Assembly: GCA_964621165.1 (NCBI GenBank)
Contig: CAZULC010000001.1
Coordinates: forward strand, 204,281 to 268,280
Direction: 5' to 3'
Source of the DNA: an uncultured Ruminococcus sp.
GTDB lineage: Bacteria; Bacillota; Clostridia; Oscillospirales; CAG-272
DNA: 64,000 nucleotides
A program made the position numbers and the translations under genes. Of this stretch, positions 2,861-3,400 are shown in pieces. Each line of letters opens with the position of its first letter. The stretch's first letter is position 1. Under the pieces are notes generated by a model that was not told the DNA's origin, made no database searches, and was given only the letters and a program-made list of their open reading frames with translations.

Positions 2861-3400
2861 GAAGATTATTTTTGCAGACGAATGTTATTGCAGAATTGTT
2901 AGCGCTTGAGTCTACGTGGCGGTTGTGTGTTTTGTACAGAATTCTCTATGGTTGACAGGCGGATTTTAGACTTCGTCAGCCGGGGATTATCTTTTTTTCA
3001 AAAATTTATTGCAGAATTGTTAATCCGCACGTGCTTCCGCCAATAAATGTTGATTTTGGCCAATTCAAGTGCAGCTAAAACCACTGATTTTTGGCAAAAC
3101 TTTTTTTGGATTATCTTTTTCTTCTAAACTTATTACATAACTGTGAACTTGTTCAATCCCGTCTGAAGATTACCGTTTTCTCGAAAACTTATTGCAGAAC
3201 TGTGGATTTGTTCAATTTCACTTGAAGATTATTTTTATCTCAAAAATTTGTTTCCAAACTGTTACTTTGAATTCGATCGGAATTATGAGCAATTTAGCTA
3301 AATTCCGCCGCAAATTCCATCAGATTTTCGTCAATTCCATCTGAGCATTATCTTTTCACCGAAATTTTATTAAAAACCTATTACTCACACCGAAGTTTTA
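2861..3400 (+). repeat. Family D: degenerate ~59-62 bp periodic array in a 620-bp AT-rich spacer
   Basis: Recognisable units start at about 2861, 2984, 3108, 3165, 3224 and 3343. The unit core is GATTATCTTTTT-N-AAA(A/C)TTATTGCAGAA(C/T)TGT. Confidence 0.7.

Follow-up and report, generated by a model that had tools for sequence, protein, structure and literature searches.

A 64,000-nucleotide stretch of DNA from an uncultured Ruminococcus sp. (contig CAZULC010000001.1, positions 204 281–268 280; hereafter, the window), which represents the part of a Clostridia chromosome near the origin, contains a diverged tandem repeat in the 618-bp spacer (2806–3423) between dus, the gene for tRNA dihydrouridine synthase, and a flavin reductase gene. 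Six recognizable units of this repeat lie in the spacer, and two more are found, in inverted orientation, just after parB. The repeat has a regular three-part anatomy and a narrow phylogenetic distribution, turns over fast in its distal part, and the same columns of its core are spared. With moderate confidence, we interpret the array as a clade-specific intra-operon minisatellite whose core is kept as a cis-regulatory protein-binding module; more specifically, we infer that the unit is a duplicated module in which a winged-helix response-regulator-type site adjoins a −10-like element.

A diverged repeat at two loci

A repeat search identified a core of ~40–45 nucleotides in six in-register copies that start at positions 2863, 2984, 3108, 3167, 3226 and 3345 (start-to-start spacings of 121, 124, 59, 59 and 119 bp) and are 68–78% identical to the reference copy; the complete units together span 2846–3390 on the + strand. 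An nhmmer profile of the unit recovered these six copies along with two reverse-strand units, with E-values between 1e-7 and 1e-11. This first profile contained its own targets, and the tests were therefore repeated with models blind to the tested copies. With a model built from the six array units only, the two post-parB units were the top two matches elsewhere (E = 3.7e-6 and 0.018); with a model built only from two relatives, L028 and L038 (the L numbers designate loci of relatives), the window units were found at E-values from 1.7e-7, for unit 2, to 0.02. Because these matches are not circular, the repeat and its coordinates are real. Tandem Repeats Finder (TRF) reports no array in this spacer because the copies are too diverged. 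In the rest of the 64 kb, no unit match rises above noise, barring one weak match, GAAATTGTGCAGAACTGTTGAC, within the flavin reductase coding sequence (CDS) (3635–3663, E ~0.6–0.9), which is probably due to chance.

The module of ~60 bp consists of three parts, box0, an ATTAT core and box 2, and the units and the segments between them are arranged as follows.

2846–2906, + strand: unit 1, with box0 TTGGCT, core GATTATT and box 2 TATTGC-agaat-TGTTAG (2886–2902)
2907–2965, no strand: non-conserved slot of unit length (59 bp), without significant likeness to the units, the other slots or the inter-unit part of L038
2966–3031, + strand: unit 2, the best copy, GGGGATTATC...TATTGC-agaat-TGTTAA, with box 2 at 3007–3023
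3032–3088, no strand: non-conserved slot of unit length (57 bp), with a short internal direct repeat, TGATTTTGGCCAA / TGATTTTTGGCAA
3089–3151, + strand: unit 3, with box 2 TATTAC-ataac-TGTGAA (3131–3147)
3150–3208, + strand: unit 4, which repeats unit 3 directly in tandem at 59 bp (76% identity over the full 59 bp), with box 2 at 3190–3206
3208–3269, + strand: unit 5, 59 bp after unit 4, with box 2 TGTTTC-caaac-TGTTAC (3249–3265)
3270–3326, no strand: non-conserved slot of unit length (57 bp), without significant similarity
3327–3390, + strand: unit 6, gene-proximal and the most degenerate, with box 2 TATTAA-aaacc-TATTAC (3368–3384), followed by the flavin reductase start codon at 3424
10371–10421, − strand: unit 7 (inverted), 8 bp past the parB stop, with box 2 TGTTAC-caatc-TGTGAC (10374–10390)
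10429–10480, − strand: unit 8 (inverted), 63 bp from unit 7, with box 2 at 10437–10453

A preliminary description of this DNA, made from the sequence alone, had called the spacer unusually long, which it is (618 bp, compared with −8 to 50 bp in more distant relatives), and had placed six units at about 2861–3343 and two units of opposite orientation at 10373–10484, all of which were recovered, the latter two at 10371–10421 and 10429–10480. It had also allowed that the core might be no more frequent than expected in AT-rich DNA; the box-2 pattern occurs 4 times, compared with 0.11 occurrences expected from shuffled sequences. Two of its details require revision. The units do not all abut, given that three slots of 57–59 bp intervene, and the interpretation of these slots as degraded units finds no support in their sequence, the sole hint being their unit-like length: the similarity of the three slots to the units, to each other and to the inter-unit segment of the relatives is no better than that of shuffled sequence.

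Anatomy of the module and apparent constraint on its core

An alignment of 14–18 units from four organisms yields the consensus TTTGGTnnAAnTCAGCCGAGGATTATTTTTTTCTCnAAAACTTATTGCAAATnTGTGAAC, in which the columns ATTAT, TT, A and TT.TT.C..A..T.T.A are invariant or nearly so. Box0 takes the forms TTTGGTA, TTTGTTC or TTTCGTC, and box 2 is a direct repeat phased by 11 bp, TRTTRC-N5-TGTKAM. In the main array of the window, box 2 reads TATTGC-N5-TGTGAA; after parB, it reads TGTTAC-N5-TGTGAC (e.g. TGTTAC-caatc-TGTGAC); and in the gene-proximal unit of L028 and L038, it is the perfect repeat TATTAC-N5-TATTAC (TATTAC-aaatc-TATTAC). The pattern TRTTRC-N5-TRTKAM, with at most one mismatch, is present in all eight window units and has 14 matches in total (4.5 expected), such that the six matches outside the units are at chance level.

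The core appears to be kept by selection beyond what shared ancestry would produce, because the units remain recognizable while the interleaved slots of equal length have decayed to random similarity, because a lineage with otherwise saturated, unalignable spacers has the same fixed columns, and because the substitutions in box 2 between L028 and L038 avoid the half-sites. All eight box-2 differences between these two relatives lie in the N5 spacer or at the R position, which together make up 24 ‘free' positions, and none of the 44 half-site positions has changed (Fisher p = 1e-4). Furthermore, the post-parB locus has the core but not the flanks. The apparent constraint could, in part, reflect gene conversion among the units, paralogous copies being not independent of each other.

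Origin and turnover of the array

The orthologous loci in related genomes were reached through the proteins that flank the array, and the percentages below are identities of these proteins to those of the window.

L029–L033 (flavin reductase, 68%): gap of 24 bp between dus and the flavin reductase gene, no units
L041 (MreC, 74%): dus and the flavin reductase gene overlap by 8 nucleotides, the whole block is compact, no units
L002 and L008 (Dus, 51–53%): gap of ~50 bp, no units
L027 (flavin reductase, 85%): gap of 92 bp, one unit
L028 (flavin reductase, 80%): contig that extends 577 bp upstream and does not reach dus, five 113-bp repeats in tandem
L038 (ParB, 81%): gap of 556 bp, five tandem 113-bp repeats

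Thus, the gap ranges from −8 to 50 bp in the unit-free relatives (flavin reductase identity of 63–68% or Dus identity of 51–53%), and the copy number at one and the same locus is 0 in L029–L033, L041, L002 and L008, 1 in L027, 5 in L028 and L038, and at least 6 in the window. Because the junctions of the distant relatives are compact and free of units, with one unit in L027 and five repeats in L028 and L038, the element is a recent, clade-restricted insertion into a once-compact junction that was amplified in place. The unit was absent from the additional loci L039–L042 and from the 25 genome loci found via Dus. A scan for the pattern found no matches in viral contigs and four single-copy matches, in unrelated DNA, in Joint Genome Institute (JGI) metagenome contigs, which is close to the estimated chance level; plasmid and phage collections gave no match, and a plasmid or phage origin was rejected.

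In L038, TRF finds a 113-bp repeat in 3.8–4.3 copies with 82–84% matches. Only the last ~60 nucleotides of each 113-bp repeat in L028 and L038 are homologous to the window unit, and therefore the array of these relatives is a dimeric higher-order repeat in which a partner segment is followed by a unit. The window array shows the same alternation, with the addition of two unit-only 59-bp copies, and its unit 6 is the positional ortholog of the sole L027 unit and of the last units in L028 and L038. L028 and L038 are close strains, with 96.7% identity of the flavin reductase CDS, compared with 88% for the whole array; judged by eye, and not computed separately, the last ~110 bp differ by one mismatch whereas the distal units are ~85% identical. 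Hence the distal copies change faster than coding DNA, as expected of unequal exchange, and the gene-adjacent copy is stable. The proposal of a decaying minisatellite, one of those made in the preliminary description, gains support both from this phyletic pattern (absence in distant relatives, a single unit in L027, five 113-bp repeats in L028 and L038) and from the faster turnover of the distal part compared with the flanking coding sequence.

The post-parB pair appears to be a second amplification, in inverted orientation, that is confined to the window genome: no unit follows parB in L038 or L039, where the spacer at this position cannot be aligned with that of the window. A remnant of an inversion was considered, given that the inverted units flank the 7-kb block from the flavin reductase gene to parB, and was rejected because gene order and orientation are the same in L038, which lacks the second site.

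Genes around the two loci

To the left of the array, the gene order is mreC, a mreD-like gene and dus; to the right, it is the flavin reductase gene, a gene for a UgtP-like diglucosyl-diacylglycerol synthase, rsmG, noc, parA, parB and the two inverted units. Beyond these units come genes for two membrane proteins, a histidine kinase and an OmpR-type regulator, followed by trmE, jag and yidC, and then dnaA, dnaN, gyrB, gyrA and more housekeeping genes. No cas, rep or transposase genes are among the genes of the window. The genes closest to the two loci are the following.

1669–2805, + strand: dus (tRNA dihydrouridine synthase), flanking the array upstream
3424–5228, + strand: operon directly downstream of the array, with the flavin reductase gene (3424–4032) and the gene for the UgtP-like diglucosyl-diacylglycerol synthase (4029–5228)
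10535–12063, + strand: two membrane-anchored proteins of unknown function (a 192-amino-acid protein and a MORN-repeat protein), downstream of the inverted units
12561–15553, − strand: histidine kinase and OmpR-family response regulator (the latter at 14873–15553), with YycF/WalR as the best NCBIfam match of the regulator, under the cut-off of the model

The Dus protein of the window consists of 378 amino acids, compared with 318–338 in the relatives; in an alignment with L038 Dus made by eye, it shows an internal insertion of ~47–49 amino acids and a longer N-terminus.

A putative regulatory module

Under the favored explanation, the module would have first arisen as a single copy directly before the flavin reductase/UgtP operon and would then have been amplified into higher-order tandem arrays, probably via replication slippage or unequal recombination. 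In the window lineage, this process would have left six recognizable copies and three decayed slots of unit length; in a sister lineage, it would have produced five 113-bp dimers at the same position; and a second, inverted two-copy array would have been seeded just after parB in this genome only. Throughout, the core would have been kept as a predicted cis-regulatory protein-binding module. The geometry of box 2 is compatible with a dimer site of a winged-helix response regulator of the OmpR/PhoB/WalR type, so that each unit would be a duplicated operator/promoter, and the array would multiply the predicted sites before two operons with membrane or envelope-related products, a glycolipid synthase in one case and membrane proteins in the other.

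Several features of the units are consistent with this scenario. Box 2 sits 15–18 bp from a −10-like element, which is RATAAT on the opposite strand and TATYTT on the same strand. Read on the opposite strand, the ATTAT core is RATAAT; 17–18 bp upstream of it, a weak −35-like hexamer overlaps box 2. A promoter scanner reported matches on this GATAAT strand in 7 of 13 units (four of the five in L038, both units after parB and one of the six in the window array), compared with 0.7–1.8 matches per region in shuffled sequences; on the other strand, one unit was matched, and box0-16-TATYTT is a weaker alternative. Individual examples are TTGGAA-18-AATAAT on the − strand of unit 5, GTAACA-16-GATAAT on the + strand of unit 7, and TTGGTA-17-GATAAT on the + strand of unit 8, which faces the open reading frame (ORF) at 10535–11113. 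After parB, the GATAAT strand faces the membrane-protein genes, and in the main array it is directed at the 3' end of dus. The WalR consensus is TGTWAH-N5-TGTWAH (PMC9210968), and the post-parB copies of box 2 are one mismatch away from it. An OmpR-type regulator, encoded 2 kb from this second locus (within 12561–15553), is a candidate binder of box 2. The invariant ATTAT, the 11-bp-phased repeat and the avoidance of half-site changes agree with the array of binding sites envisaged in the preliminary description; binding itself is, on these sequence features, plausible.

Other observations weigh against this interpretation. The regulator is a guess from motif geometry, and most of the array units (TATTGC...TGTGAA) are at least three mismatches away from the WalR consensus. 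No further box-2 site was found in the 83 kb formed by the window and 19 kb of L038, the best non-unit match scoring 12.8 bits compared with 16–21 bits for the units, so that no regulon is visible. At the two loci, the units are oriented in opposite ways with respect to the downstream gene, which fits an operator better than a promoter, and the promoter strand is ambiguous, with 8–9 of 12 positions matched on both strands. The spacings of 59–124 bp are unlike the phasing of 10–22 bp in known multi-site response-regulator operators. Finally, other tandem arrays and miniature inverted-repeat transposable elements (MITEs) fill the spacers of these genomes, and a purely mutational origin thus needs no function.

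A bolder version, to which we assign a low probability, is that the array is a selectively maintained cluster of predicted high-affinity winged-helix response-regulator sites, perhaps for the WalR/PhoP-like system whose genes lie 2 kb from the post-parB pair, with the minisatellite copy number tuning occupancy or titrating the regulator and so setting the expression of the membrane-glycolipid operon. If true, this would be a bacterial ‘evolvable enhancer or decoy' built of tandem operators.

Elsewhere in the window, a perfect match to the WalR consensus, TGTTAAATGATTGTAAA, is located at 53153–53169, 95 bp upstream of the gene for a 967-amino-acid protein with S-layer homology domains (53264–56167); this is plausibly a WalR-type target unrelated to the repeat family. 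Inspection of the units by eye for sigma-54, sigma-H and extracytoplasmic function (ECF) promoters and for Rex, Fur, CodY, CcpA, LexA, ArgR and CRP/FNR sites revealed half-site resemblance only, none of it conserved across the units.

Alternative explanations

A competing explanation that retains substantial, though lesser, plausibility is that the array is a neutral, selfish or junk minisatellite generated by slippage or unequal crossing-over in a lineage tolerant of long spacers, with the core reflecting recent ancestry and gene conversion. The variation of copy number among close relatives and the quick turnover of the distal units would then be expected, the same genomes hold unrelated tandem arrays (106 bp × 3 at 40095–40410; 48 bp × 3.5 and 48 bp × 2 in L038), a MITE family occupies ~15 spacers of the window, and the regulon-like extra sites are missing from the 83 kb mentioned above. 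Such an origin by itself does not account for units that are 61–78% alike with fixed columns while the interleaved slots of equal length are random, for the fixation of the same columns where other spacers no longer align, for the substitutions between L028 and L038 that avoid the half-sites (p = 1e-4), or for a second locus that has the core without the flanks. It also appears rather unlikely that the units are plain tandem sigma-A promoters with no dedicated regulator, which would either boost expression of the flavin reductase and UgtP genes (from the + strand box0-16-TATYTT) or fire away from them from the GATAAT strand, being antisense or insulating towards dus and sense towards the ORF at 10535. 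The most conserved block, RATAAT, matches five of the six positions of the −10 consensus, the GATAAT-strand matches have 17–18-bp spacers in 7 of 13 units, with one + strand match, and the post-parB units face the downstream gene. Nevertheless, the −35-like hexamers are weak (3–4 of 6 positions) and variable, the strongest conservation outside ATTAT is the 11-bp direct repeat, which reaches past any −35 element, the better-scoring strand in the main array points to the 3' end of dus and not towards any gene, and AT-rich DNA easily yields matches this good.

The remaining explanations are less probable still. A small non-autonomous mobile repeat, similar to a MITE, a repetitive extragenic palindrome (REP) or BOX, that inserted at two sites and was then amplified locally is unlikely: the two loci are in opposite orientation, the second is missing from L038 and L039, the ancestral compact junction lacks the repeat and the host genomes are rich in MITEs, but the unit has no terminal inverted repeats, target-site duplication or hairpin, only two loci are found in the 64 kb and none elsewhere in the 19 kb of L038, zero matches came from viral contigs and four single ones, as expected by chance, from JGI metagenome contigs, and the window has no transposase gene. 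The iterons suggested in the preliminary description, or a centromere-like site, i.e. sites that a replication initiator or ParB/Noc would bind close to the origin of the chromosome, are very unlikely. Directly repeated, regularly spaced units in AT-rich DNA, 3–7 kb from noc-parA-parB and ~23 kb from dnaA, would suit this reading, which is contradicted by unit length (~60 bp instead of 17–22 bp, at a spacing of 59–124 bp), by the lack of a rep gene, by the absence of DnaA boxes (≤1 mismatch) from 2806–3423 compared with five at 25945–26580 between dnaA and dnaN, by the perfect parS TGTTTCACGTGAAACA at 8157–8172 with none in the array, by the absence of the array from relatives that keep the same par locus, and by a GC-skew dip at mreC-dus that is local and not a global switch. 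Least probable of all is an element acting at the RNA level, such as a repeated small RNA, a leader, or a transcript with repeats and spacers as in clustered regularly interspaced short palindromic repeats (CRISPR). Dissimilar segments that are uniform in length do separate conserved units in the window, a layout superficially like one of repeats and spacers, and the array probably lies within the dus-to-flavin-reductase transcript. Against this stand the searches of Rfam 15, which gave no match at gathering score and, even when relaxed to E ≤ 10, just eukaryotic snoRNA and viral noise (E 0.3–8); the consensus folds, computed on both strands, which are weak (−10 and −5 kcal/mol for 113 nucleotides) and have essentially no covariation; the whole-spacer fold z-scores of −1.8 and +0.5; repeats that are only 61–78% identical; ‘spacers' that are themselves repeated in L028 and L038; and the absence of cas genes from the 64 kb. 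The preliminary description was thus right that this is not a CRISPR array, given the divergence of the repeats and the lack of cas genes, and wrong in adducing a lack of unique spacers.

Some narrower candidates were also rejected. The coarse GC-skew profile changes sign near 2–3 kb, which suggested a replication origin at the array; when rechecked in finer windows, with 2.6 kb of extra upstream sequence and with L038, the change turned out to be the local mreC-dus dip, and dnaA, dnaN and the DnaA boxes are at 24–28 kb instead. A parS or Noc site in the array was dismissed because the only parS of the window is the one at 8157–8172; the array has no inverted repeats beyond trivial runs of A/T, and its units have no palindromic ParB box. 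The ORFs in the array are short and inconsistent, which argues against a coding array. Derivation of the unit from the window MITE was rejected as well: a by-eye comparison of box 2 with the reverse complement of the MITE terminal repeat gave 13 of 19 matches, about the level of chance over the alignments tried, and nhmmer matches between the two have E-values of ~13–30. No terminal inverted repeats exist in or around the units, compared with those of ~50 bp in the MITE family. A stable hairpin per unit, as in REP, bacterial interspersed mosaic elements (BIME) or BOX, was not seen, the folds being those given above, with no meaningful covariation.

Origin region and other repeats in these genomes

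The dnaA (23887–25575) to dnaN (26986–28251) spacer is unusually long (1.4 kb), contains the five DnaA boxes along with a MITE copy (25577–25965) and is probably oriC. The GC skew of the + strand is positive on either side of dnaA, including the minus-strand block trmE-jag-yidC (12.5–23 kb); a skew switch is absent at the presumed origin, and the sole feature is the dip over mreC-dus. The canonical parS lies between noc and parA.

A dispersed repeat family fills most of the long spacers of the window, with elements of ~100–400 bp that have terminal inverted repeats of ~50 bp and the core GAAGCTGTGCAAGAACTTT, which occurs 19 times in the 64 kb (0.05 expected). This family looks like a MITE burst. 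The family extends to L038, with at least 8 copies in 19 kb, to L027 and L039 and, weakly, to L002; L041, the compact relative, seems to lack MITE-filled spacers, although it was not searched for this family. The element at 5290–5646 has both ends. The positions in the window are listed here.

First half: 5244–5646, 12066–12410, 16177–16603, 18091–18610, 25577–25965, 28278–28484, 28876–29101, 31418–31872
Second half: 32795–33163, 44901–45262, 46674–46853, 49022–49369, 52799–53016, 60413–60727, 61478–61823, 63311–63649

A second intra-operon minisatellite (40095–40410; 106 bp × 3.0, 93% identity) is located just upstream of infB (36985–40077, − strand) in the nusA-infB cluster, and a 59-bp piece of it matches L038 13013–13070. 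Within the IF-2 gene itself, the N-terminal region contains long in-frame tandem repeats of 9, 18 and 24 bp (39075–39797). L038 has two unrelated tandem arrays, 48 bp × 3.5 between mreC and mreD (1251–1415) and 48 bp × 2 at 17624–17719. The syntenic block from mreC to the MORN-repeat gene measures 12.0–12.5 kb in the clade, compared with 9.7 kb in L041, and the clade has therefore gained ~2.3–2.8 kb of spacer DNA there.

Significance and comparison with known systems

On the ordinary reading, the locus is a clean case of a compact operon junction (0–50 bp) that grew into a 600-bp spacer via a minisatellite, in a lineage where MITEs and tandem arrays have enlarged the intergenic DNA. For annotation, care is needed not to take such spacers for origins, CRISPR arrays or RNA genes; the locus might also be used as a marker for strain typing. 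Should the core be a true operator or promoter, regulatory sites would have been multiplied by repeat dynamics.

The repeat family has no match in the available sequence libraries and would be a new sequence family of a known kind, the bacterial intergenic (intra-operon) minisatellite, the closest kind being that of the mycobacterial interspersed repetitive unit–variable number tandem repeat (MIRU-VNTR) loci. MIRUs are minisatellites with copy-number variation (PMC3635867). The similarity lies in tandem units of tens of bp in intergenic DNA, in copy numbers that differ between close relatives, and in the position of the window array between two genes that, in relatives, lie next to each other in the same orientation. 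MIRUs occur at more than one locus per genome, and the window family has two known loci, both in the 64 kb. The two families are unrelated in sequence, the host phylum is different, and the window copies are far more diverged and interleaved with decayed slots. MIRUs, as reportedly described by Supply et al. in 1997, are located inside operons and contain small ORFs that overlap; a chain of small ORFs with overlapping stop and start codons (GTGA) is found only in L038, with no consistent chain in the window. In L038 (3903–4193), each 113-bp repeat contains a GTG-initiated ORF of 38 codons whose TGA stop overlaps the next GTG, which may be due to chance.

The STAR elements of Staphylococcus aureus and the pneumococcal BOX elements are modular intergenic repeats that vary among strains and whose function is debated. 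They share with the window repeat the short conserved cores every 40–60 bp with variable sequence in between, but BOX modules fold into hairpins and the STAR cores are 14-mers rich in GC, whereas the window unit is AT-rich, ~45–60 bp long, unstructured and bipartite. Operators of the OmpR/PhoB family, for instance those of WalR, resemble box 2 in having two similar direct hexamers 11 bp apart, and box 2 adjoins a −10-like element, as in activator-dependent promoters; the known operators comprise 2–4 sites phased by 10–22 bp, compared with 6–8 modules at 59–124 bp here.

Plasmid iterons and the sopC centromere of the F plasmid, which consists of 12 repeats of 43 bp, are likewise tandem direct repeats that act as arrays of protein sites, and sopC shows that units of 40–60 bp can serve in this capacity. 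The window array differs from them in having no cognate rep or par pair and no inverted repeat in its units, in lying on a chromosome that already has a canonical parS, and in being dispensable in relatives. Finally, the 113-bp dimer of L028 and L038, which combines a conserved module with a different partner segment, is reminiscent of the higher-order repeats of satellite DNA, albeit at a tiny scale (~0.5 kb), in a bacterium, and with one half of the dimer conserved while the other half decays.

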